Source: Candidatus Pacearchaeota archaeon (GTDB lineage: Archaea; Nanobdellota; Nanobdellia; Pacearchaeales; GW2011-AR1). From it: DNA of 43,189 nt. Shown here one piece after another: positions 4,933 to 43,186 of the stretch; positions within the stretch are counted from its first letter, which is position 1; every line of letters begins with the position of its first letter. A program made the translations under genes and the position numbers. A model generated the notes under the pieces. The model was given only the letters and a program-made list of their open reading frames with translations, was not told the origin of the DNA and searched no databases. The stretch lies in NCBI GenBank assembly GCA_002688335.1, contig NZCQ01000002.1, forward strand, positions 1 through 43,189, given 5' to 3'.

Positions 4933-5045
4933 TTATCTCTGAACTTTTGTACTTCTTTGTTGGAATTGGGAGTTTAGAGAGAGGCTTAACAAAAGCTCAA
5001 ATTGAAAACTTTTGCAACAAATTAAGTGTAAAATGCAAAAGTTTA

Positions 5046-7179: not shown

Positions 7180-7701
7180 ATGACAGATTCAAACACACAC
7201 GAAGAACAAAGCTATCTTGATGCAATTGTCTCCTTTCTCACAGCACAAGAAGTAACTCACTATGAAACAGAAATCTCTGATGGAGAGAATTTTGTAATGG
7301 GGTATGGAAACACTCCCGAAGAATCTCAAGAAAATGCAAGTGAGCAATGGGATGAATATGGAGGTTCAAATGATGATGAAGGAGATTGCTGTTATTTAGT
7401 CAGCGCATGTCTTGATGCCAAAGAATTGCCAAGAAGTTCGCCTGAAATGAAAGCCATGAAACATTTAACTAAAAGTTTCATATTACAATCTTTCCAAGGA
7501 AGAAGAGATTATATATCTTACAAAAGAAAAGCTCCGGGAATTGTCCAAGCAATAAAAGATAGAAAAGAAGCTCAAGATATATGGGATGGAATCCACAAAA
7601 AATTGGAAACAATAGCATCATCAGTTCATTCAAATAACCTTAGGGAAGGACATAGGTTATACAAGGAACTGGTTTTAGATTTAGAATCAAGATATATCTA
7701 A
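7180..7701 (+). CDS. Hypothetical protein with an acidic N-terminus and a Cys-containing CCYLVSAC motif
   Basis: ORF track. Strong AGGAGGT Shine-Dalgarno 7 nt upstream. Visibly richer in G+C than its neighbours. Confidence 0.5.
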   Translation: MTDSNTHEEQSYLDAIVSFLTAQEVTHYETEISDGENFVMGYGNTPEESQENASEQWDEYGGSNDDEGDCCYLVSACLDAKELPRSSPEMKAMKHLTKSFILQSFQGRRDYISYKRKAPGIVQAIKDRKEAQDIWDGIHKKLETIASSVHSNNLREGHRLYKELVLDLESRYI

Positions 7702-7795
7702 AGAGAATTTTGTATAAACGCGATTTCCAAAGGAAATTTGGTAAAATTCTCTATTAGAAACCGAGAAAAATAGAGTTTTTCAAAGTTTTCTAAAC
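7701..7795 (+). repeat. R1 double-hairpin repeat, copy 1
   Basis: Outer stem AGAGAATTTT/AAAATTCTCT encloses inner stem ATTTCC-AAA-GGAAAT, followed by a second hairpin module (GAAAAA..TTTTTC). It starts at the stop codon of the preceding gene. Confidence 0.7.
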
Positions 7796-8091: not shown

Positions 8092-8610
8092 ATGAAAATA
8101 TATCTTTCTGGAGATCATGCAGGATTCAAATTAAAAGAGAAAATAAAGTCTTGGCTAAGAAATGAATATGGAAAAAATTTTTACAACTCCCCTGGGTGGG
8201 CGGGTGGGTTGAGAGATAACAGTCGTAAAAATTCTTCTATAGAAATCGAAGATTTCGGACCTCTAGAATATAATGAGAAAGATGATTATCCAGACTTCGT
8301 AATTCCCATGGCCAGAGAAATTGTCAAAAATAAAAATAGTAAGGGTATAATTATCGCAGGATCAGGTCAGGGCGAATCAATAGCCACAAATAAACTAAAA
8401 GGAATCAGGGCAGGATTGTATCATGGAGGAAGCACTAAAATTGTTAAAACAGGAAGGGCACACGATAACATTAACATATTATGCCTAGGATCAAGATTCG
8501 CTAGCGAGAAAGAGGCTAAAAAAGCCATAAAGAGTTTCCTAGAAACTCCATTTAATAAAGGCAGGCACTCAAGAAGACTAAATAAACTCAAACACCTAGG
8601 AAGTAAATGA
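8092..8610 (+). CDS. rpiB: Ribose-5-phosphate isomerase B (LacA/B family) carrying an 18-aa insertion
   Basis: MKIYLSGDHAGFKLKEKIKSWL..DDYPDF..IIIAGSGQGESIATNK.KGIRAG..NILCLGSR..PFNKGRHSRR matches RpiB family motifs. Confidence 0.85.
   Translation: MKIYLSGDHAGFKLKEKIKSWLRNEYGKNFYNSPGWAGGLRDNSRKNSSIEIEDFGPLEYNEKDDYPDFVIPMAREIVKNKNSKGIIIAGSGQGESIATNKLKGIRAGLYHGGSTKIVKTGRAHDNINILCLGSRFASEKEAKKAIKSFLETPFNKGRHSRRLNKLKHLGSK
8178..8231 (+). repeat. 54-nt hairpin-ended G-quadruplex element, copy 1 (inside rpiB, in frame)
   Basis: TTTTTACAACTCCCCTGGGTGGGCGGGTGGGTTGAGAGATAACAGTCGTAAAAA. By my count 48/54 positions are identical to 18467-18520. Confidence 0.85.
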
Positions 8611-13677: not shown

Positions 13678-14608
13678 AATGAAAAACTACTATGAGATGA
13701 AATCATTCACTCTGAAAGACATTCCAAATTTAGACACTTGTGTTTTAGGAGCATTAGAATTACTAAACAGAGAGAAAGTCCCCAAAATTAACATTCCCTA
13801 TAAACATCCACTTGTTGTGGGATCAGGAAATGCAGAAGCAACAGGCAAAATATTATTCCACGATAAAGACGCTATATTCGCTAACGAGAGCAATCTAAAA
13901 ACAAAGATAAAAACAAAAGGAATAGATGGGATAGTAATCATCTCCGCATCAGGAAGCAAACATGCTCCAATAATTGCTAAAAAAGCTAAGCAACATAAAA
14001 AACACATAACACTCATCACAACTAAAGATCATTCTCAAACAGAAAAATATCTAGACAAAAAACACAGCCATGATGAATTCATTTTCCCAAGACAAAGAGA
14101 ACCTTATACCTATAACACTTCCACCTACTTAGGAATGATTCTAGGAAAAACAAAAGAAAATCCAAAAGAAATTTACAATTTTATTAAAAACAAAATAGAC
14201 AAGTTAAATCTAAGTAAACTAAGGACATACAAAAGATTCTACCTAATCATCCCACCAAAGTTCAGTTTGATAAAAAGAATGTTTGAAGTTAAATTCATCG
14301 AACTATTCGGGAGAGAGATTGCAAGAGACATCGAAACAAGTGAATATATAAAACATGCAACAACCGTTATCCCAAGTAAAGAACTATTTATCAGCTTCGG
14401 AGAAAAAAACACCCATTATGGCAAAAAAGAAAACCGACTTTACATTCCATTACCAAAAAAAGCAGACTTCGGAACCATAATAGCCATAGGATATTATATA
14501 ATTGGAAAAATACAATCTCACAATCCTTATTTCAAAAAGAACATAGAAAAATATACAAAAGAAGCTAGCAAAGTCTTTAACACAAGGATAGGGCCGATAG
14601 TGGAATAA
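13655..14608 (+). CDS. SIS-domain sugar-phosphate isomerase-like protein (possibly an archaeal PGI/PMI-like enzyme)
   Basis: The segment VVGSGNAEATG..GIVIISASGSKHAPIIAKKAK..ITLITT resembles a SIS fold signature. It sits in the pentose-phosphate cluster. The start may instead be the ATG at 13679. Confidence 0.4.
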   Translation: MKTANINKMKNYYEMKSFTLKDIPNLDTCVLGALELLNREKVPKINIPYKHPLVVGSGNAEATGKILFHDKDAIFANESNLKTKIKTKGIDGIVIISASGSKHAPIIAKKAKQHKKHITLITTKDHSQTEKYLDKKHSHDEFIFPRQREPYTYNTSTYLGMILGKTKENPKEIYNFIKNKIDKLNLSKLRTYKRFYLIIPPKFSLIKRMFEVKFIELFGREIARDIETSEYIKHATTVIPSKELFISFGEKNTHYGKKENRLYIPLPKKADFGTIIAIGYYIIGKIQSHNPYFKKNIEKYTKEASKVFNTRIGPIVE

Positions 14609-17708: not shown

Positions 17709-18455
17709 TCACTTCAATCCCTTACAAAAATCATAAGCATCATCCTTCGGCTTATATCCCACAAGCTTCTTAGTAAAAGACAAATCCATATACTTCTTCT
17801 TATTATCCGAACTTCCACTCAATATTCCATATCTAACACTTTTCGGAGCAACAATGCACTTATGAATTAGCTGAGTCATATCTCTTTGACTTATAACATA
17901 ATCATAATTATCTCTATTCAAACAAACTTTTTCTCTTAAATCATCAGAAACATAAGCGCCAATTCTTATAGCCAAACAAGACAGGTTATATTTTTTTGAA
18001 AAAACATAACAAAGAGATTCTCCAAAAACCTTAGAAGCTCCGTAAAAGCCAGAAGGCTTAGGTGCATGATCTTCTCTCACTCTTTTCCCTAAAGGATATC
18101 CCCTTATCGCATGAACACTGCTTGCATAAATAACTCTTTCACATCCAGCCAATCTTGCAGCCTCAAAAACATTGTATGCACCAATTATATTGGGAGCTAA
18201 AACCTCATCAAAACTTGCACTAGGATCAGATTCCGCAGCCAAATTAACAACAACAGAAATGCCCTTCATAGCTTTCTTCAACCTAGCAACATTAGAATAA
18301 TCAACAACCCTGACCTCATATCCTTCAATCTTTCTTTTCTTTCTAGAACCAATTACAACACCATAATAACTCTTATAATTTTTCTCATAATCCTCCAAAA
18401 TCCCGGGACCAATCCTTCCAGTAACTCCTAAAAACAAAACCTTTCTTTTAACCAT
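17709..18455 (-). CDS. NAD-dependent epimerase/dehydratase (SDR) family protein
   Basis: MVKRKVLFLGVTGRIGPG (Rossmann motif GxxGxxG) and YGASK (YxxxK). Start set at the ATG at 18455, which has GAGGT upstream. The longer track ORF reads through the G4 repeat. Confidence 0.8.
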   Translation of the reverse strand: MVKRKVLFLGVTGRIGPGILEDYEKNYKSYYGVVIGSRKKRKIEGYEVRVVDYSNVARLKKAMKGISVVVNLAAESDPSASFDEVLAPNIIGAYNVFEAARLAGCERVIYASSVHAIRGYPLGKRVREDHAPKPSGFYGASKVFGESLCYVFSKKYNLSCLAIRIGAYVSDDLREKVCLNRDNYDYVISQRDMTQLIHKCIVAPKSVRYGILSGSSDNKKKYMDLSFTKKLVGYKPKDDAYDFCKGLK

Positions 18456-18466
18456 CTTACCTCTTA

Positions 18467-18520
18467 TTTTTACAACTCTCCTGGGCGGGTGGGCGGGTTG
18501 AGAGATTACAGTTGTAAAAA
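18467..18520 (+). repeat. 54-nt hairpin-ended G-quadruplex element, copy 2 (intergenic, 11 nt upstream of the epimerase start on the opposite strand)
   Basis: TTTTTACAACTCTCCTGGGCGGGTGGGCGGGTTGAGAGATTACAGTTGTAAAAA, with perfect 11-nt terminal inverted repeats. Confidence 0.85.
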
Positions 18521-18724
18521 TTACACACATTACAAATAAAGAATAATATTTAAATGTAATGTGAACCAATTTACCTTCAAGCTAACCTTTTCAAAAAAGA
18601 TATTACTCCATCGTTTTTTTGATTTATCAATTACCAAAAACTTTAATGAAGCAACTAAGCGGAGCTAGTTGCGAAACATAAAACAAATCAACAGCTTTAA
18701 AAAATCAAATCAACTTTCAATAGC

Positions 18725-21801: not shown

Positions 21802-21833
21802 AAGAATCGAACTTCCGACTTCTTGGTGTAAAC
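21802..21833 (-). repeat. Partial, degenerate copy of tRNA-Val (T-arm to anticodon loop)
   Basis: AAGAATCGAACTTCCGA (17/17) and GGTGTAAAC match 22553-22584. No acceptor or D-arm is present. Confidence 0.7.
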
Positions 21834-22533: not shown

Positions 22534-22542
22534 CTTAAAACA

Positions 22543-22613
22543 TGGGCGTAGGAAGAATCGAACTTCCGAATCCTCGGTGTAAACGAGGTGGTTTGCCACT
22601 AGCCTATACGCCC
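22543..22613 (-). tRNA. tRNA-Val (TAC)
   Basis: Folded by hand: GGGCGTA..CCTCG TTTACAC CGAGG..GGAAG TTCGATT CTTCC TACGCCC A. The D-stem has one mismatch. Confidence 0.85.
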
Positions 22614-22725
22614 ATAATAAATTAAGAATGAGTGGCTTTTTAAGGCTTTTTATTTGAAATAATGTTATTATTAGAAAGTAATTAATAATGATAAGGTTTA
22701 TAAAGGATTTAAATGAGAGATTAAT

Positions 22726-30025: not shown

Positions 30026-30123
30026 GAAATATCTTTATCCACAATAATTTATAAGCATATATATAGAAAAAAACATACTTAGAAGGGAGTTTAAAATTAC
30101 ATTATTTCAAGGGCCTCTACAAA

Positions 30124-30627
30124 TTAAAAGTCATGCAAACCTTCCAAGGTCAAGAATGATTTCGCTTGCTCTATAAACTCGCTAACTTCTTCAAAAACCC
30201 TATCCTCATATCCCTTAATTCTCTCCTTTATGATATATTTGTCATATATTTCCCTCAAACGTTTAAAAAACATATTTTCCCATTCACCATTAACATCCTT
30301 CATCAGAGAAGCCGAGAAAGTTACCTCTAAAGTACCAGAATCCATGGAAACTTCCTGCCCATTTTTCTTAACCTGAACCTTCTTCATACCTAAGATTATC
30401 CAATCAATCTTTATCTCTATCCCAAAGTAATTAGATAAATCGCTAGTAGCCACCCAGCCTATTTCAACTTCCTTAGAATCTCCCTTAGTTTTCTCCAGAT
30501 ATCTAGCCTCATGTAAATCATAACCAAAATCAACAATAGTCACATATAAAAACTCATAAAAATCTTTAAAGTTAAAAATACCAGATTGTTTTATCTTTCC
30601 TTTATAAACACTATCTTTTTCAGCCAT
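30124..30627 (-). CDS. Orphan protein, tandem paralog B
   Basis: MAEKDSVYKGKIKQSGIFNFKDFYEFLY.. is clearly paralogous to the upstream gene. Confidence 0.55.
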   Translation of the reverse strand: MAEKDSVYKGKIKQSGIFNFKDFYEFLYVTIVDFGYDLHEARYLEKTKGDSKEVEIGWVATSDLSNYFGIEIKIDWIILGMKKVQVKKNGQEVSMDSGTLEVTFSASLMKDVNGEWENMFFKRLREIYDKYIIKERIKGYEDRVFEEVSEFIEQAKSFLTLEGLHDF

Positions 30628-30653
30628 ATTATAATTCACAAACAATAAAATAA

Positions 30654-31154
30654 TCAACGTTGACCTTCAACTGCTAAGAATGATTTTGCCTGTGCGATCG
30701 CTTCTTTAATCTCTTCGAAAAGCTTAATTCCATAATCATCTATCCTCGACTTAATAATATATCTATCATAGATTCCCCTCAAAAACTTCCAAAACGGAGC
30801 ATTTTCCCACCGATTCTCCCAATCACGCACAAGAACAGAATCAAATTTTATCTCTAAAGTTCCAGAATCCATACTAACCTCTTCCCCTTCTTTCTTAACC
30901 TTAACTTTCTTCATCCCCAAAATAAACCAATGAGCAGAGATCTCAAAACTAAAATAATCCGAAACCTCCTTAATAGCCGTCCACTTAATCTCAACATCTT
31001 TAGAATCTCCCTTAATCTTCTCAACATATTTCTTCTCAATAATATAATAATTCTCATCAACAAGATAATCATATAAAAACTCATAAAAATCTTTAAAATT
31101 AAAAATACCAGACTGTCTAATCTTTCCCTTGTATATCCTATCTCTCTCAGCCAT
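30654..31154 (-). CDS. Orphan protein, tandem paralog A
   Basis: MAERDRIYKGKIRQSGIFNFKDFYEFLY..ILGMKKVKVKK.G.EVSMDSGTLE.. with GAGGT upstream of the ATG at 31154. Confidence 0.55.
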   Translation of the reverse strand: MAERDRIYKGKIRQSGIFNFKDFYEFLYDYLVDENYYIIEKKYVEKIKGDSKDVEIKWTAIKEVSDYFSFEISAHWFILGMKKVKVKKEGEEVSMDSGTLEIKFDSVLVRDWENRWENAPFWKFLRGIYDRYIIKSRIDDYGIKLFEEIKEAIAQAKSFLAVEGQR

Positions 31155-31168
31155 AACAACTACCTCTC

Positions 31169-31267
31169 TAAGAACCTTATATATTTGACATTTGCGAAGC
31201 AAATCGCATATAAAGTTCTTCTTAGAGAACGAGAAAAACGGAGTTTTTCAAAGTTCTCTTCATAAAC
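31169..31267 (+). repeat. R1 double-hairpin repeat, copy 2
   Basis: Outer stem AGAACCTTATAT/ATATAAAGTTCT, inner stem ATTTGC-GAA-GCAAAT, then AGAGAAC-[GAAAAAC GGA GTTTTTC]-AAAGTTCTCT. Confidence 0.7.
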
Positions 31268-35570: not shown

Positions 35571-36083
35571 ATGAGTAAATCACAAAAAATAGAGGATAGA
35601 AAGAAAGGTGTCAACTTAATTAAAGATGGATGTGCTCTTATTGACACTAGCAGTAGAACAAAAATAGTTAAAGAAAAAAGTGTGTTAGCATTAGTTTCTA
35701 AAGATTTTAATTTTACCATAATGATTCATTCTAAAGAAAAGAAAAAAATACTAAGGAGGTTATTGAAACATAATAATGAAAATAGATCTTACCACATTAT
35801 GCACTCTGTAAAAATATATTATGCAATAAAAGACTATATTGACATATGTCCTGCATTTTACATTTGTTGTGAGGGATTTAATAAGGGTTTGCTTAAACAT
35901 TACCTTAAGAAGATTTTTAATAATAAATATCATGAAAATAAAATAAACATTTTAATGTCTTTAAAGCCCCTATTTGGTAGAAAAAACATAGCAGATAGAA
36001 CTGCATGGGATGTTAACAAGAAAGGGAAAAAACCCACAATGATCTTAAAAGAAAAACATTTTGAGAAACTGCACCTCTTATAA
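35571..36083 (+). CDS. Hypothetical basic protein
   Basis: ORF track, with the ATG at 35571. I recognise no motif. Confidence 0.4.
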   Translation: MSKSQKIEDRKKGVNLIKDGCALIDTSSRTKIVKEKSVLALVSKDFNFTIMIHSKEKKKILRRLLKHNNENRSYHIMHSVKIYYAIKDYIDICPAFYICCEGFNKGLLKHYLKKIFNNKYHENKINILMSLKPLFGRKNIADRTAWDVNKKGKKPTMILKEKHFEKLHLL

Positions 36084-36344
36084 CAAGAATCAGGAGAAAG
36101 GGATTGCCCGAACCTTGAGTTCGGCTACATATAAAAATGTAGGTTCCTCAAGCATCCTCCATCAAATTCCCGCTACAATAATAGTTATGCGCACATATAT
36201 ATAAATGTTTGTGCAGTTCAAAACTTGTAGAACCAGGGGACATATGTCTCCTGGTTGAATCGGTTATTTATACATAAATTTTAGGCCTCTTCGCTAATCC
36301 CATTGATAATGTATAAATCCATATTAGTATTTTGCTACCCATAT

Positions 36345-36515
36345 TAAAGAGACACTCACTTTTCCACAGATACTAAAGAGAACTTTGCATAATTGACATT
36401 TCCGAAGGAAATCACAGCAAAGTTCTCCAAACATTAAGTAAGATGAATTACAGGAGCTAACAATATTTCTAGCGAGGAAATTTGACGAAGTCAATTTCGA
36501 AAGCTGATTTATTAA
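36345..36515 (+). repeat. R1-related structured locus, copy 3 (candidate sRNA)
   Basis: AGAGAACTTTGC..ATTTCC GAA GGAAAT..GCAAAGTTCTC, plus a downstream hairpin GAAATTTGAC GAA GTCAATTTC. Flanks are homologous to 38662-38920. Confidence 0.55.
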
Positions 36516-36662
36516 ATCAATCTGAAAAATTATTTAAATTATGGAAAAAGAATCAAAAGTTCCATAAAAAACCTGTAATCCGCTTTCAGTAGTAATTATC
36601 ATCCAAAATCTTTAAAAACCGATTAAATTTCCTTAACGTAAGTAAACAACCATATTTTAAAA

Positions 36663-36881
36663 ATGGAAGAAGAAATGACAAATAATGAAATGGTTTCAGA
36701 AGAAACTTCTGAACCAACATCTGTTGAAACAACTGAATCAGAAACATCTGATGCAGAAGCTGAAACAACACCAGAAGATGCAACAGCAGATACAGAAGAA
36801 ACAGAGGAAGAAGTAGAAGAAGCCCTTAGTGATGGGGACGATTCTATTGAAACAGATCCCTCTGAAGAAGATTCAGAATAA
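36663..36881 (+). CDS. Extremely acidic 72-aa protein (E/D/T/S-rich)
   Basis: ORF track. It is low-complexity, so its coding status is uncertain. Confidence 0.35.
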   Translation: MEEEMTNNEMVSEETSEPTSVETTESETSDAEAETTPEDATADTEETEEEVEEALSDGDDSIETDPSEEDSE

Positions 36882-36928
36882 ACTCGTTTTTATCTAACTT
36901 ATTTTTATTTATTATTTTATTTATTTTT

Positions 36929-37098
36929 AACATCAAAAAAACAATGGCGCACCACACCTTAAAATCTCAATAACTTTTAGTTCTTGATGATCATACAGAT
37001 CCTTGAGGGGTGTGGTTTGTTACAGCGCCTTGTTTTTAGGATCTACAGTAATCACCACACTCTGAAGAGTGTGGTTCTCTCAGATTACTGAGATAATT
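36929..37098 (+). repeat. R2 two-hairpin element, copy B
   Basis: See copy A. The lower stem is GGCGC/GCGCC here versus GGGCC/GGCCC in copy A. Confidence 0.7.
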
Positions 37099-37142
37099 AA
37101 TAAGAACTCCAAAAGAGAAGTGTTTAAATAATTTGGAATATT

Positions 37143-37628
37143 ATGAAAAAGATGAATATCTCCGATTCATATCAACCACTACTTCAGACAATATCTTTAT
37201 GTGCGATTATCCAAACAGCTGCCCTAAAAGCAAGAGCAAACTCCTTAGAGAAATACATACCTGTTGCAAAAGACAAAGCAGACATCTTAGAACTAAATCA
37301 TTACTTTGATGATAACGGAAAGAGAGTTTTTGATCAAATAATTCTCTGGAATTGGCATCATTCAGAAGGTGAACATCATGTATTTGCATGGAGATTTGCA
37401 AAACAACCCGGGCAAATTCCTCAGAGAAATTGGAGCAAGAACAACTATACAATTCAATGGCTCGACGGAAAAACTCTAAGATATGTTGAAAGTGATTCCC
37501 AAAGAGAAACCTGGACGCAATACGATCCAGAGGTTCATGACAGAACATTCTTCAGACAAAGTCAAAGAAGGGAATTAAGTAGAATGAGATGCCCTCCAAA
37601 AAAACCAGGAAATCCAAACAGAAACTAA
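37143..37628 (+). CDS. Hypothetical protein
   Basis: ORF track. Visibly higher G+C. No motif recognised. Confidence 0.5.
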   Translation: MKKMNISDSYQPLLQTISLCAIIQTAALKARANSLEKYIPVAKDKADILELNHYFDDNGKRVFDQIILWNWHHSEGEHHVFAWRFAKQPGQIPQRNWSKNNYTIQWLDGKTLRYVESDSQRETWTQYDPEVHDRTFFRQSQRRELSRMRCPPKKPGNPNRN

Positions 37629-38587
37629 CCCAACTCAATTATGGCCTCATTATTCCCCTCATTCAATTCTTCAATCTCATCATCTATATCAATAATAAAC
37701 TTAATTGATTCAGGATTTCTTCTCTTTAATCTAAGATTCTGAGTTCTCAAAGTTATTCCAGCACCAAACCCAATACTCTCAATCTCCCTTATATCAATAA
37801 CATCACCATTATCTAAAATAGTCAAAACAATATTATCTGCATCAACAACACCAAAATTCTTCATGGTCAAATTAAAATCTAAATACCTTCCCCTTTTCAC
37901 AGCATTAAAATCCTCAAAAAGCAAATCAGGCAAATTAGGCAAAGCATAAATTCTGTTCAATTCATCTATCAAACCTTCATCTAACTTTTGACTACAAGAA
38001 GTAAGAAAAGGGTACATAATGCTTCTCTTATCATCTGAATGATCAAACCCTAACACATGCAATATCTCATGCACCTCAACATTCGGATAATCACATTTAA
38101 TAGATTTCTTATTATCAAATAAGTAAATGATGCCTTCAACAATAACATAAGACTCTCCAGATTCAATGATCTCCTTAGCTCCCCCCTCCCCAGCAATAAA
38201 ATACTTCTTACCAGAACCAACATTAACTTTCTCCTCAGAACAAATCACCTCAACATCTCCCCCAAACTCAACCTCCTGAAATCTCAAAGCAGAAACCCAC
38301 TTTTCTATCTCATCAAAAGCCCGAATCATTCTAACCACCTGCTCACCACTACACTCGTCTTCAATATCATAACTTATTGTCCTATGATTAAACCTCATAT
38401 TTGAATAAAATTGCTTAACCTCTCCAATCTCAACACTGCCATCTCTCTCAGCTATCCTAACCTCCAAGTTCTCAGCCTCTCCAGGAATATTCATATATAG
38501 GAAATAAACTATAATAAACAAAACAATCAAAAACATAAATCCAAAAAGAATTTTAGATAAAAGACTCTGAGATAATTCGTTATTCAT
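37625..38587 (-). CDS. Membrane-anchored metzincin (matrixin-like) zinc protease
   Basis: HEILHVLGFDHS (HExxHxxGxxH) followed by SIMYP (Met-turn). N-terminal TM helix. Confidence 0.75.
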   Translation of the reverse strand: MNNELSQSLLSKILFGFMFLIVLFIIVYFLYMNIPGEAENLEVRIAERDGSVEIGEVKQFYSNMRFNHRTISYDIEDECSGEQVVRMIRAFDEIEKWVSALRFQEVEFGGDVEVICSEEKVNVGSGKKYFIAGEGGAKEIIESGESYVIVEGIIYLFDNKKSIKCDYPNVEVHEILHVLGFDHSDDKRSIMYPFLTSCSQKLDEGLIDELNRIYALPNLPDLLFEDFNAVKRGRYLDFNLTMKNFGVVDADNIVLTILDNGDVIDIREIESIGFGAGITLRTQNLRLKRRNPESIKFIIDIDDEIEELNEGNNEAIIELG

Positions 38588-38661
38588 CAATCCATAAATT
38601 AAAAAACTTATTTAAAACTATCATCAGGGTTTACTACTAACAATATAATCCCCACTTAGGG

Positions 38662-38900
38662 TTAAGACTCACACATTCGAAAACAGATCATATCTCTCTA
38701 AAGAGAACTTTGCATAATTGACATTTCCGAAGACTTCAATTTCTTTGAAGTTGAATGTGTCAGGAATTTTAATTCCTGAGGAAATCACAGCAAAGTTCTC
38801 TCTTAGAGGAGTTTGAAATTGCATTATTTCAAAGTTCTCTAAAGGTAATTGTAGACATTTCAAAACGTTAGCGAAGGAACTTGGCAAAGCCAGTTCCGAG
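38662..38900 (+). repeat. R1-related structured locus, copy 4, with a 47-nt two-hairpin expansion in the inner loop (candidate sRNA)
   Basis: AGAGAACTTTGC..ATTTCC GAAG[ACTTCAA TTTC TTGAAGT..CAGGAATT TT AATTCCTG]A GGAAAT..GCAAAGTTCTCT, then a second module, then GGAACTTGGC AAA GCCAGTTCC, ending in a T5 run. Confidence 0.6.
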
Positions 38901-38994
38901 AGCGATTTTTCAACTACTCCCTTAAGGGAGAGTGAGCGATTTCATTCCCCCACTGGATGGGTTAATGGGCCTTAGTTGAAAAAATTACATCCAT

Positions 38995-40503
38995 TCACTC
39001 ACACATAGCCAAAGCCTCAATCTCTGGGATATAAAGCTTCTTTTCATTCAAATCTTTGTAAGACTTAGAACCAGTAGCACTAAGAATTTCTTTAAACTCT
39101 TTCTCCAGATTAACTGCATAATTCTTAACTCTCTCTGCCTTCTCCTCAATATCCAATCCCTTCTGCAAACCCGGATTCTGCGTAGTTATTCCAACCGGAC
39201 AAGTATTTTTATTGCACTGTAAGGCCTGTATACAACCTAAAGCAAGCATAAACCCTCTCGCAGTATAAACAACATCAGCTCCCAATGCTAAGGCAATAAT
39301 CTGCTTCCCGGGATTAATCAACTTTCCAGATGCAACAATCTTCATCTTGTCCCTCACTCCCCCCTTAACTAAAATATTCTGAACACTTCTTAATGCAGGA
39401 AACAATGGAACACCTACATCATCCATAAAACTCTTAGGAGCAGCCCCAGTACCTCCTTGACTGCCATCAAGAGCAACATAATCTGGAAAAACATTTTGTA
39501 ATTTCATTTCCTTAACTAAATCCGTGAACTCGCTTTCATCCCCCAAACACAGCTTCATTCCAACAGGCAATTGAGAAACATCTTGAACTCTCTTAATAAA
39601 CTCAACAGTTGTTTTAGCATCCTTACATTCAATATGATGACTAGGACTTACAACATCTCTCCCCATAGGAACCCTCCGCAATGAAGAGATTTCTCCAGTA
39701 ATCTTTTCTTTTGGAAGAAGTCCTCCCTTACCAGGTTTAGCCCCTTGAGAAAACTTTATCTCGATCATCTTAATCTGAGGATTCTCAGATAACTTTCTTA
39801 ATTTATACTCGTTCAAACTTCCATCCTCATTCCTAACTCCAAACTTAGCAGTCCCCATTTGAAAAATAATATTTGGACCCTCCATTAGATGATATTTAGG
39901 ATATCCTCCCTCCCCAGTATTAATAGGAATTCCTGCCTTCTTAGCCCCTCTAGCCAAGGCCCTAACAGCACTCTCTCCAAGAGCTCCAAAACTCATAGCA
40001 CTTATCATAGCAGGCTTATTTATTGCATAAATATTACTAATTCCACGCTCCTCACCAAAAACAACTTTATAGCCCCCATACCCGCTAGAGGGGAACATTG
40101 AATGCCGAATCTTAATCTCATGTTCATTAAATTCATTTTGAGATCCAAATGAAGAAGTAGAATCTTCATTCTTACTTTTACTATAAACTTCTTCTCTCTC
40201 AGTTCTATTAAATGGCCTCTCCTCATTATCGCTCAAATAAAGATACTGTCGGAACTCAGGACCAATTGACTCAAGCATATAACGAAGCTGTCCAATAATT
40301 CCAAAATTTCTCAGCACAGCATACTTAACTTGAAAATTCATCAGATAAACATTAACCAAAAAAAGCCCACCAAAAACAACAGATCCTATGTGATACCACT
40401 TAGAATTCCTAACTCCAAAAAAGATAAACAAGGCTGCAAGCAGAGGTATAACAACATTAGTCACTGCAGCTATCTTATGAAGATTTATCGCTAGTCTCGG
40501 CAT
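38995..40503 (-). CDS. FMN-binding glutamate synthase (GltB domain 2)-related protein with N-terminal TM helices
   Basis: GEGG, FSQGAKPGKGG.LP, LDGSQGGTGAAP and GKLINPG motifs. Confidence 0.85.
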   Translation of the reverse strand: MPRLAINLHKIAAVTNVVIPLLAALFIFFGVRNSKWYHIGSVVFGGLFLVNVYLMNFQVKYAVLRNFGIIGQLRYMLESIGPEFRQYLYLSDNEERPFNRTEREEVYSKSKNEDSTSSFGSQNEFNEHEIKIRHSMFPSSGYGGYKVVFGEERGISNIYAINKPAMISAMSFGALGESAVRALARGAKKAGIPINTGEGGYPKYHLMEGPNIIFQMGTAKFGVRNEDGSLNEYKLRKLSENPQIKMIEIKFSQGAKPGKGGLLPKEKITGEISSLRRVPMGRDVVSPSHHIECKDAKTTVEFIKRVQDVSQLPVGMKLCLGDESEFTDLVKEMKLQNVFPDYVALDGSQGGTGAAPKSFMDDVGVPLFPALRSVQNILVKGGVRDKMKIVASGKLINPGKQIIALALGADVVYTARGFMLALGCIQALQCNKNTCPVGITTQNPGLQKGLDIEEKAERVKNYAVNLEKEFKEILSATGSKSYKDLNEKKLYIPEIEALAMCE

Positions 40504-40580
40504 AATCTGAAATAATATTATTGCTTAATAAATCTTTGTATAATATGATCGGATCATCATATAAATCTCTATCAGTAAGG

Positions 40581-40590
40581 TTTAAAAATA
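40581..40590 (+). promoter_or_regulatory. TATA-box-like TTTAAAAATA about 27 nt upstream of tRNA-Asp
   Basis: Its position relative to the mature 5' end fits archaeal promoter geometry. Confidence 0.4.
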
Positions 40591-40611
40591 CTCCAATAAT
40601 TACTAAAGCAT

Positions 40612-40683
40612 GCCCCGGTAGTGTAGTGGTTATCACTCGACCCTGTCACGGTCGCGACCCGTGTTCGATTCACGGTCGGGGCG
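40612..40683 (+). tRNA. tRNA-Asp (GTC)
   Basis: GCCCCGG..CGACC CTGTCAC GGTCG..CCGTG TTCGATT CACGG TCGGGGC G. Confidence 0.9.
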
Positions 40684-40810
40684 TATAGAGGGCCAAAGGC
40701 CCTCTACTATTCTCGGTGATATCGGACTAGAATACAATTTATGATATGTTCGATTTGAGCAATCTGATTTTGTGTAAATACCAAAAAATAACAAAATCAG
40801 ATTGGGAACA

Positions 40811-41756: not shown

Positions 41757-42014
41757 ATGAGATTAAAAAAAAGACAAAAAATCTTAATTGCAATAGTCCT
41801 AATCATAATCCTCGCCCTATTTCTCTTCTCAATACTAAACATAGCAACATTCCATAACCTAGATGACTTAAAAGAAGCTAGGAAAGCTTGCCTAAGCTCA
41901 AACATAGGAAATAAATGTTCTTTTGAACTCAAAGAAGAAAAAATAGAAGGAATTTGTAAAACAATTAAATTTGGCAAGGTAATCTGTAAACCGGCTCCAT
42001 CCCAAATTAATTGA
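41757..42014 (+). CDS. Small membrane-anchored Cys-containing protein whose last codons and stop lie inside the IS left end
   Basis: ORF track. The IS inverted repeat starts at 41993. Confidence 0.4.
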   Translation: MRLKKRQKILIAIVLIIILALFLFSILNIATFHNLDDLKEARKACLSSNIGNKCSFELKEEKIEGICKTIKFGKVICKPAPSQIN

Positions 42015-43186
42015 ACCCAATTAATTTGTTAATTCTAATAAGAAAAAGGAGGTAATGATATGGGCAAGCCGATTACTCGGCTCAACCCAAAGATAGAATC
42101 TTCAATCCAGAAGACCTTTCTTGAAAAAGCTATTGGACTTCTATTATCGATTGCAATGATTTTACCAGATCAAGCGATTGTAAAACGAGGTCCTAAGCCT
42201 TATGATTATAGGAAAGTGTTAGTTATATGTGTTTTGAGAGTTCTTTTGAGGAAGACCTATGCTGATTATGAAATTGAGATGAGAACCGATAAGCGAATCT
42301 GTGATCCTCTTGGGCTCACAATCCTTCCAGGAAAGAGTACTCTTCAAAGAGGGATGAATAACTTCACAATGGATTTGCTAAGAGAGTTTAACAAACTATT
42401 AATCCAGAAATGGATTAATAGAAAGCTAGACGTTCTAATCGATGCTTCGGGGATTAGGATCGTTGGTAGAAGCATTTGGTATTCACTGAGAATAAAAGAG
42501 AAGATTTCCCGTCGAGAATGTGATAAAATTCACCTTGCAGTATGTAAAGACACGCTACTTGTTTTGAACTGGTTTATAACTGAAGGAAGGAAACACGACT
42601 CCCCATTCTTTAGAAGATTGTTAGCCCCATTCAATTGGTTAGGTGAAGTGTTAGCTGATGCGGGTTATTTATCTAGGAAGAACTATCAGTTTGTAACTGA
42701 TAGAAAAGGTGCAGCGTTCATTCCATTTAAGAAAAATTCTACTGGCAAACCTAAAAGCTATCCTGCTTGGAAATGGGCTTTTAACTTATGGAAAGCAGTT
42801 CCAATGATCTTCAAGGGAATTTACAATCAGCGATCAAAGGTGGAGATGGTATTTTCTGTTTTGAAGAAACGCTATGGAGATCAACTCTATAGTAAGGGAG
42901 CTTATCGAAGACGGAGAGAATTCGCCTTGAGGTTACTAGCTTATAATACCAAACTAGTAATTTGTTTAGAATATGCTTTGGAGAATAATCTTTCTTGTTG
43001 GGTTCGAGCTAAACAGTGATAATATGGTCTAAAAAGGGAAGCTTACTAGCCGTAGCTCTGATAGATTTTGCATTAATAATACTAAGGGAGATTTCAGCTT
43101 GGCAAAGCCTGCTGAAATTAACAATAGAATTCTAATTTTGAGAAAATTAGCTAGAATTGTTATGAGATTTTATTTGGGATGAAGCC
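41993..43186 (+). mobile_element. IS5/IS4-superfamily insertion sequence with imperfect terminal inverted repeats
   Basis: The left end GGCTCCATCCCAAATTAA matches the reverse complement of the right end GGCTTCATCCCAAATAAA (43186 backwards). A single DDE transposase gene lies inside. Confidence 0.75.
42060..43019 (+). CDS. DDE transposase (DDE_Tnp_1, IS5-like)
   Basis: DASG.., ADAGY.., then NQRSKVEMVFSVLKKRYG (conserved E with a K/R signature). AGGAGGT Shine-Dalgarno upstream. Confidence 0.85.
   Translation: MGKPITRLNPKIESSIQKTFLEKAIGLLLSIAMILPDQAIVKRGPKPYDYRKVLVICVLRVLLRKTYADYEIEMRTDKRICDPLGLTILPGKSTLQRGMNNFTMDLLREFNKLLIQKWINRKLDVLIDASGIRIVGRSIWYSLRIKEKISRRECDKIHLAVCKDTLLVLNWFITEGRKHDSPFFRRLLAPFNWLGEVLADAGYLSRKNYQFVTDRKGAAFIPFKKNSTGKPKSYPAWKWAFNLWKAVPMIFKGIYNQRSKVEMVFSVLKKRYGDQLYSKGAYRRRREFALRLLAYNTKLVICLEYALENNLSCWVRAKQ

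Follow-up and report, generated by a model that had tools for sequence, protein, structure and literature searches.

R1, a probable family of non-autonomous foldback MITEs in Nanoarchaeia-type DPANN archaea

The sequence analyzed here, the window, is a stretch of 43,189 nt deposited at NCBI under the name Candidatus Pacearchaeota archaeon (assembly GCA_002688335.1, contig NZCQ01000002.1, positions 1 to 43,189). It carries a thermosome gene, ribosomal protein genes, and four scattered tRNA genes, and has a G+C content of about 32%. Based on this name and on Tara Oceans contigs that carry the thermosome sequence and are near-identical to the window, the host is a marine DPANN archaeon. The order of a 457-aa gene, two paralogues, a CBS gene, the thermosome gene, and a Peptidase_M10 gene is kept at three loci of relatives, L140, L142, and L143. 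The paralogues (30124-31154) are tandem genes of unassigned function that encode about 166-177 aa and are 73% identical in DNA over 300 nt. Relatives keep the pair together with the adjacent 457-aa gene, as does a groundwater Woesearchaeota MAG (L032), there with three paralogues.

Within the window lie four copies of a palindromic repeat, R1, together with R1 remnants and an insertion sequence (IS). Their coordinates, with target-site duplications (TSDs) where present, are as follows:

5006-5044, no strand assigned: hairpin AAACTTTTGCA...TGCAAAAGTTT between convergent genes, a possible distant or degenerate R1 relative, weakly assigned (covariance model E of about 0.1-0.3)
7699-7794, plus strand: R1 copy 1, double unit, with TSD TAAA at 7699-7702, core at 7703-7790 (hairpin 1, 7703-7751; hairpin 2, 7757-7790), and TSD TAAA at 7791-7794
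30079-30121, plus strand: decayed R1 relic of hairpin-2 type that shares 85% identity with hairpin 2 of copy 4
31170-31258, plus strand: R1 copy 2, decayed double unit (hairpin 1, 31170-31220; hairpin 2, 31225-31258)
36374-36431, plus strand: R1 copy 3, single unit (hairpin 1 only), core at 36378-36427
38699-38843, plus strand: R1 copy 4, double unit, with TSD TAAA at 38699-38702, core at 38703-38839 (hairpin 1, 38703-38800; hairpin 2, 38806-38839), and TSD TAAA at 38840-38843
38733-38779, plus strand: nested insertion of 47 nt, with two mini-hairpins, in the inner loop of copy 4
41993-43186: IS with a DDE_Tnp_1 transposase gene (42060-43019) and 18-nt inverted ends, GGCTCCATCCCAAATTAA / GGCTTCATCCCAAATAAA

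The original prediction had described four R1 copies in one orientation; their positions, arms, and shared hairpin or double-hairpin architecture were borne out in the sequence, and all four are on the plus strand. A repeat search of the window recovered both predicted modules: module 1 as a four-copy family and module 2 as two groups, one of which added a fifth, decayed piece at 30086-30119. Using a covariance model built from related double hairpins, only the four R1 sites were found in the window at E<0.01. Similarly, the exact 11-mer AGAGAACTTTG occurs five times in the 43 kb, each time within an R1 copy. The compensatory change claimed for copy 2 can be read from the sequence: copies 1, 3, and 4 have ATTTCC/GGAAAT as their inner stem, and copy 2 has ATTTGC/GCAAAT. 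On folding of each copy, the hairpins formed on either strand, with z-scores of -2.4 to -7.1. The shared plus orientation of the four copies has a chance of 1 in 8 and is not significant by itself.

The copies differ in preservation. The left TSD of copy 1 contains the stop codon, TAA, of the ORF at 7180-7701. Copy 3 is flanked by TAAA on the left (36374-36377) and by CAAA on the right (36428-36431), one mismatch apart. Copy 2 is without a recognizable TSD (CTCT vs TTCA at its flanks); its terminal G has changed to A, with compensation within hairpin 1 (AAGAAC/GTTCTT), and its hairpin-1 arms have mutated to TTATATAT/ATATAA. The 47-nt insertion of copy 4 is missing from a homologous, near-identical element in L143, and the relic at 30079-30121 sits between two minus-strand genes. 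The three intact window copies share a single flank type, TAAA, and the TSD is thus not independent evidence within the window alone.

Other repeats and gene arrangements were observed in the same DNA. A 57-nt repeat, 89% identical between 8177-8233 and 18466-18522, has a perfect, G-quadruplex-like G3-N1-G3-N1-G3-N1-G3 motif between inverted ends of 11 nt (ATTTTTACAAC/GTYGTAAAAAT). The former copy lies in frame within rpiB and adds 19 codons (NFYNSPGWAGGLRDNSRKN); the match to Pfam RpiB picks up again only at residue 47. The latter is just upstream of the likely true start (MVKRKVLFLGVTG...) of a minus-strand ORF (17709-18569). The G-rich core had no copies in 144 collected loci. A hairpin family that we call R2 consists of AGCGAR, a 9-10-bp stem with a bulged T, a GAA/AAA loop, and GARAGC; its stem sequence varies between copies and the pairing is kept:

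36470-36510: R2 copy in the window
38870-38905: R2 copy in the window
43090-43125: R2 copy in the window
18975-19012 of L143: R2 copy
11696-11732 of L143: R2 copy

R1 copies 3 and 4 are each followed, after 40-60 nt, by an R2 copy; one more R2 copy lies within the IS, and those of L143 are about 30-40 nt upstream of promoter-like AAAGTTTAAAA boxes. Upstream of Peptidase_M10, all three syntenic relatives have a tRNA-Asp gene, adjacent to it in L140 and L142 and separated from it by a small ORF in L143. The interval between these two genes in the window holds R1 copy 4, an R2 hairpin, and a Glu_synthase-domain gene (38995-40503). The regions compared were as follows:

38591-40684: window
13963-14130: L140
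13039-13200: L142
11505-12005: L143

This comparison suggests that the Glu_synthase region is a lineage-specific insertion beside a tRNA gene. Scanning metagenomes with the Glu_synthase protein, whose gene adjoins copy 4, returned distant relatives only and gave no empty site for copy 4. Elsewhere, 32 nt at 21802-21833 match the 3' half of the tRNA-Val gene (22542-22614) with 91% identity. They gave no tRNA call by ARAGORN or Rfam and could be a tRNA fragment or an att-like remnant. Finally, a G+C-richer segment of a 1-kb intergenic region (36950-37090) has long-range complementarity, GCGCACCACACC...GGTGTGGTTTGTTACAGCGCC, followed by CACCACACTCTGAAGAGTGTGG. It may be an unannotated structured RNA, and it had no Rfam match better than an E of about 2.

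We scanned 185,579 species-representative genomes with the pattern AGAGAAYTTTG-N20-50-YAAARTTCTC. At least 119 loci matched, of which at least about 65 lie in MAGs of Woesearchaeota, Nanoarchaeota, and similar groups. Seeding the family by its arm pattern makes this breadth and the copy numbers lower bounds, biased towards these arms. The R1-family loci listed include Nanoarchaeia, one Aenigmatarchaeota MAG, and MAGs labelled 'Methanosarcinales'; several MAGs yielded more than one locus among the matches listed. A covariance model of 32 double hairpins matched DPANN loci only, with one weak exception, among the matches listed. On inspection, the bacterial and viral arm-pattern matches had no double-hairpin architecture, and a viral origin was rejected, as none of 13 IMG/VR pattern matches had the architecture of the element.

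Members of the family share the arms GAGAAYTTTG...CAAARTTCTC. The basic unit is a core of 45-90 bp with terminal inverted repeats, 5'-GAGAAYTTTG(M)...(K)CAAARTTCTC-3', around a variable loop in which nested insertions are tolerated; loop insertions of 47-110 nt are common. The commonest mobile form comprises two tandem units with a 2-3-nt joint, about 88 bp in total, in which hairpin 1 has C-type and hairpin 2 T/G-type arms. A typical element reads TATA-GAGAACTTTGAAT-(about 22 nt)-ATTCAAAGTTCTC-TTA-GAGAATTTTGAC-(about 15 nt)-TTCAAAATTCTC-TATA. Overall, the cores span 45-140 bp, are non-coding, and lie outside the listed ORFs except for stop codons in their first bases. Among the matches listed, those nearest to the window copies make up a subfamily in which the loops are of the GCATAATTGA type and hairpin 2 is long. 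One family member lies beside a gene indel: the pdxS-pdxT operon of a Nanoarchaeia MAG (L020, 3025-4531) is absent at the syntenic position of L027, about 6526, and the right-hand breakpoint is within about 4 nt of the edge of the element.

Bounded elements were taken as every cluster with a left and a right arm at no more than one mismatch (n = 73). All 73 have terminal inverted repeats of the GAGAAYTTTG / CAARTTCTC type. Identical 4-nt direct repeats lie outside the core GAGAA...TTCTC in 54 of the 73, and the next 4 nt outward match in none. These TSDs were TATA (32), TAAA (8), TTTA (5), TGAA, AATA, and TATT (2 each), and TTTT, TAGA, and TTCA (once each). The insertion target is an AT-rich 4-bp sequence, mostly TATA, TAAA, or TTTA (roughly TNNA). 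Non-palindromic TSDs make up 22 of the 54, and none of these match as inverted repeats; those flanks therefore cannot extend the inverted repeat. Single-hairpin R1 units likewise carry TSDs and are polymorphic.

Evidence for mobility also comes from comparisons within and between genomes. At L009 (3033-3119), the sequence is TATA-element-TATA, and the orthologous L096 has a single TATA between flanks that are about 81% identical. The empty site is a 6-nt spacer between two convergent genes, and the pair is the one clean filled/empty comparison for the family (n = 1). In MAG JACPJQ01, near-identical copies occur at three loci (L076, L087, and L119) on two contigs; two are identical and the third is off by a single base. 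A hairpin-1 unit in L143 is about 92% identical to those of copies 3 and 4 (4 of 51 nt differ, by eye) and lies at a non-orthologous site, in DNA whose thermosome sequence is only about 73% identical to that of the window. The syntenic relatives L140, L142, and L143 have no element at the position of copy 2. Two further loci, L016 and L113, carry 92%-identical elements in a common intergenic region whose flanks are 68-70% identical. Their TSDs differ (AATA vs TATA) and their positions are offset by a few nt, so these elements look like independent, repeated insertions rather than conservation in place. The reading of copies 3 and 4 as ends of a composite transposon (2.46 kb, TAAA outer flanks) was rejected, since both copies have flanks of their own and relatives carry the enclosed Peptidase_M10 gene in synteny.

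Based on the inverted repeats, the 4-bp TSDs, the filled/empty site, the near-identical copies, and the empty syntenic sites, the R1 repeats probably form a non-autonomous MITE family of foldback type that belongs to the Nanoarchaeia-type DPANN archaea. The original prediction had named, as one outcome that would count against it, that the copies were the ends of a known IS or MITE with TSDs and no transcription. In essence this is what we found, as to the TSDs and the filled/empty site; the family itself is not a previously named one.

R1 elements often lie at gene ends. In a 31-element sample, all but two fall outside simple ORFs of at least 90 aa, and upstream ORFs often end within the first 17 nt of the element, which hold TAG, TGA, and TAA in three frames. 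A TATA duplication followed by the terminal G also creates a TAG stop codon. For co-oriented upstream ORFs, 9 of 13 end no more than 10 nt from the edge of hairpin 1 or inside it. Copies are often exactly at gene ends because the targets TAAA, TAGA, and TGAA contain stop codons and the spacers are tiny. In the window, copy 1 appears to have landed on the stop codon of the ORF at 7180-7701.

The original prediction had read the preserved pairing as selection on a folded RNA or ssDNA. The pairing itself was confirmed despite drift of the primary sequence: in an alignment of 32 members, 95.5% of the cells pair, five pairs (16 cells) are changed on both sides, a figure equaled by none of 500 shuffles, and all pairing measures exceed the shuffles and slid controls. 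A structured RNA family, either 3'- or 5'-UTR hairpins or small RNAs such as post-stop stabilizers or terminators, would account for this covariation and for the stable folds. It would also fit arm position 7, which is C in hairpin 1 and T/G in hairpin 2, with the partner arm changed accordingly, such that each hairpin is held in register. The proximity of hairpin 1 to the ends of co-oriented ORFs and the better conservation of the elements relative to flanking genes are further points for an RNA. Nevertheless, we consider this reading quite improbable. Folding energy has no strand asymmetry: among 31 elements whose orientation could be assigned by a motif rule, the plus strand was more stable in 13 and the minus strand in 18 (p = 0.67). 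Orientation relative to neighboring genes is mixed. Rfam 15 at gathering score returned only the four tRNAs in the whole window, and a search of 36050-39000 (copies 3 and 4) at a permissive E-value gave sub-threshold matches that all had an E of 1 or more. Moreover, the TSDs, the filled/empty site, and the identical dispersed copies indicate spread by insertion, the target sequences account for the closeness to stop codons, the apparent conservation between L016 and L113 reduces to two separate insertions, and the loops accept 47-110 nt of inserted DNA. Readings as H/ACA, C/D-box, K-turn, SECIS, or BHB-intron RNAs were rejected: the boxes and bulges are missing and the 'pocket' is too asymmetric. 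Judged from the sequences, the compensatory changes in R1 do not show a structured RNA gene. R1 pairing does reach past the terminal repeats into the inner stems, that of hairpin 2 covarying by eye, and the arms are kept across orders. Together, these features exceed what transposase binding alone needs, which leaves room for some structural or host selection.

Two DNA-based alternatives concern how the elements move. IS200/IS605 elements have subterminal hairpins, lack terminal inverted repeats and target duplications, and insert 3' of a fixed tetra- or pentanucleotide. The original prediction had pointed to such a Y1 enzyme, and R1 could in principle be a set of ssDNA hairpin elements moved by HUH/Y1 proteins, namely IS200/IS605-derived PATEs or REP/BIME-like repeats with RAYT. 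Indeed, the pair of similar, directly oriented hairpins resembles those at the left and right ends of IS200/IS605, conservation extends to pairing rather than sequence alone, and the lone filled/empty junction also fits insertion 3' of TATA without duplication. We regard this as very unlikely. The flanking 4-mers vary between copies and match within each, which is a staggered-cut duplication; the inverted repeats are terminal rather than subterminal; single-hairpin units carry TSDs and are polymorphic; and no Y1 gene lies near any copy in the flanks of the collected loci. We attach a similarly low probability to R1 being a site-specific recombination site, attC-like or dif-like, that bounds exchangeable gene cassettes. 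Three adjacencies suggested it: a hicAB-type toxin-antitoxin block between two direct R1 copies in L005, the pdxS-pdxT indel that abuts a hairpin-1 edge, and copy 4 beside the Glu_synthase gene that relatives lack there. In addition, the junction CAAAGTTCTC-TTA-GAGAATTTTG resembles a recombinase core site. However, the L005 copies have their own TSDs (TTTA and TGAA) and thus represent independent insertions, most copies stand alone between housekeeping genes, and no integrase lies nearby in the collected loci. The three adjacencies may arise since permissive intergenic spots collect both kinds of insertion. An attC site has R''/R' cores RYYYAAC/GTTRRRY, extrahelical bases, and a place in ORF-attC arrays next to intI. 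The R1 arms, AGAGAAC/GTTCTCT, misfit this consensus, being purine-rich where attC is pyrimidine-rich, and the R1 stems are mostly perfect. It is possible, though unlikely, that R1 elements mark hot spots of gene-block exchange.

If R1 is a MITE family, a DDE-type transposase supplied in trans would move it; the terminal inverted repeats and a TSD of fixed length that differs between copies point to a staggered-cut enzyme of this type. The palindromy could be kept in two ways. Both arms would have to fit one transposase, and template switching or gene conversion within the palindrome could copy a change from arm to arm in a single event. With these two processes, RNA-level selection would not be needed. 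The terminal G-to-A change of copy 2, which is compensated in its hairpin partner and not at the distal end of the element, fits template switching. Among about 70 DPANN loci, no autonomous element with R1 ends was found. Likewise, a search for left and right arms spaced 0.5-4 kb from each other between equal flanks gave only trivial pairs of neighboring elements in the collected DPANN loci, candidate autonomous intervals in L091 and L065 were rejected as containing ordinary genes, and the protein families recurrently next to R1 copies in the collected loci include no transposase or recombinase. The IS of the window (IS5/IS4-type) was rejected as a parent: its ends, GGCTYCATCCCAAAT, are unrelated. 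A near-identical contig from another sample (L001) stops at the left edge of this IS, as expected for an assembly-breaking repeat.

The local promoter motif, (A)AAGGTTTAAAAA / TTTAAATA, is located about 25-30 nt upstream of tRNAs and of leaderless or short-leader genes. A promoter reading of R1 was rejected, as the mutated arm of copy 2 is the only part of R1 with this motif. The minus-strand sequence of this arm, ATATATAA, is 22-33 nt upstream of the ATG at 31154, the start of a 166-aa gene. In relatives, a promoter-like box ends about 30 nt upstream of the ATG of the orthologue. In the window, a similar box, ATATTTAAATAT, is at about -130, and copy 2 fills the gap to the gene. Copy 2 thus seems to lie between the ancestral promoter-like TTTAAATA box and the ATG, where it would form a structured leader of about 100 nt, or its ATATATAA arm would act as a new TATA-like box. 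Having lost its recognizable TSD and its terminal G, copy 2 is probably immobile now. More broadly, the foldback units might have been recruited as gene-boundary modules, in which stop-codon hairpins end or stabilize transcripts and TATA-type sequences are provided at both ends. We judge this unlikely; if true, selection on the fold of such modules would explain the near-invariant arms and pairing across Nanoarchaeia orders.

The genomes of DPANN archaea are very small and densely packed with genes, and their mobile DNA is poorly known. The data presented here document a probable DPANN MITE family with defined ends, a 4-bp TSD, and a target of TATA/TAAA type that is found in several orders. 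For annotation, labels such as sRNA, terminator, or CRISPR-like repeat should be avoided for R1 hairpins, and R1 explains why many DPANN ORFs end within a conserved palindrome. The copies could also be used as strain-typing markers. R1 further serves as a warning that a functional RNA should not be inferred from compensatory changes in a palindromic repeat alone. The question raised is which transposase moves R1 and whether it is still present.

Several known systems share features with R1. IS5-family elements (IS5/IS427/IS1031) and Tourist-type MITEs have GAG ends and AT-rich duplications of 2-4 bp, and the R1 ends, GAG beside an AT-rich duplication in this 2-4-bp range, presumably resemble those of the IS5 family as defined in ISfinder. 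In contrast to that family, no IS5-type transposase with matching ends was found for R1, and the ends of the window IS (DDE_Tnp_1) differ. Correia elements (CREE) of Neisseria and R1 both have ends that read TATAG..., and we know of no cognate transposase for either. Both are non-coding and multi-copy, have terminal inverted repeats and an AT-rich duplication, insert beside genes, can act as sources of promoter sequence, and fold into hairpins in transcripts; Correia elements are about 100-155 bp in size (PMC10969869). They differ in that Correia elements are bacterial, with 26-bp repeats and a 2-bp TA duplication, whereas R1 is archaeal, has 11-14-bp repeats and a 4-bp TSD, usually occurs as a tandem foldback pair, and is found in several orders.

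ERIC sequences, also called IRU, provide a second parallel. According to Wilson & Sharp in 2006, they reportedly show compensatory changes and were long debated as functional RNA vs mobile DNA. Like R1, the ERIC sequences of Enterobacteriaceae and Vibrionaceae are imperfect palindromes conserved in sequence across families, with lineage-variable copy number, variants lengthened by internal insertions, and sites that are intergenic or in 3'-UTRs (PMC10969869). ERIC is a single 127-bp palindrome of bacteria, whereas R1 consists of modular hairpin units with documented 4-bp TSDs. In archaea, MITEs have been described in Sulfolobus, the haloarchaea, and a few other groups; like R1, Sulfolobus SM1-SM4 and the MITEs/PATEs of Halobacterium and Haloquadratum are short, non-autonomous, and located in intergenic DNA (PMC10969869). 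The known archaeal MITEs are each confined to a lineage, and for most of them a resident IS can be named as the source (IS200/IS605 in the case of PATEs), whereas R1 is a DPANN family, has no parent among the collected loci, and is common to Woesearchaeota, Pacearchaeota, and Nanoarchaeota MAGs. A 2024 MITE census reports one Woesearchaeal genome with 105 MITEs per Mb and describes no family in its text (PMC11602168). We found no description of the R1 family in the literature compared, which included the text of this census. On this comparison, R1 is best read as an undescribed MITE family whose closest behavioral analogues are the Correia and ERIC elements.
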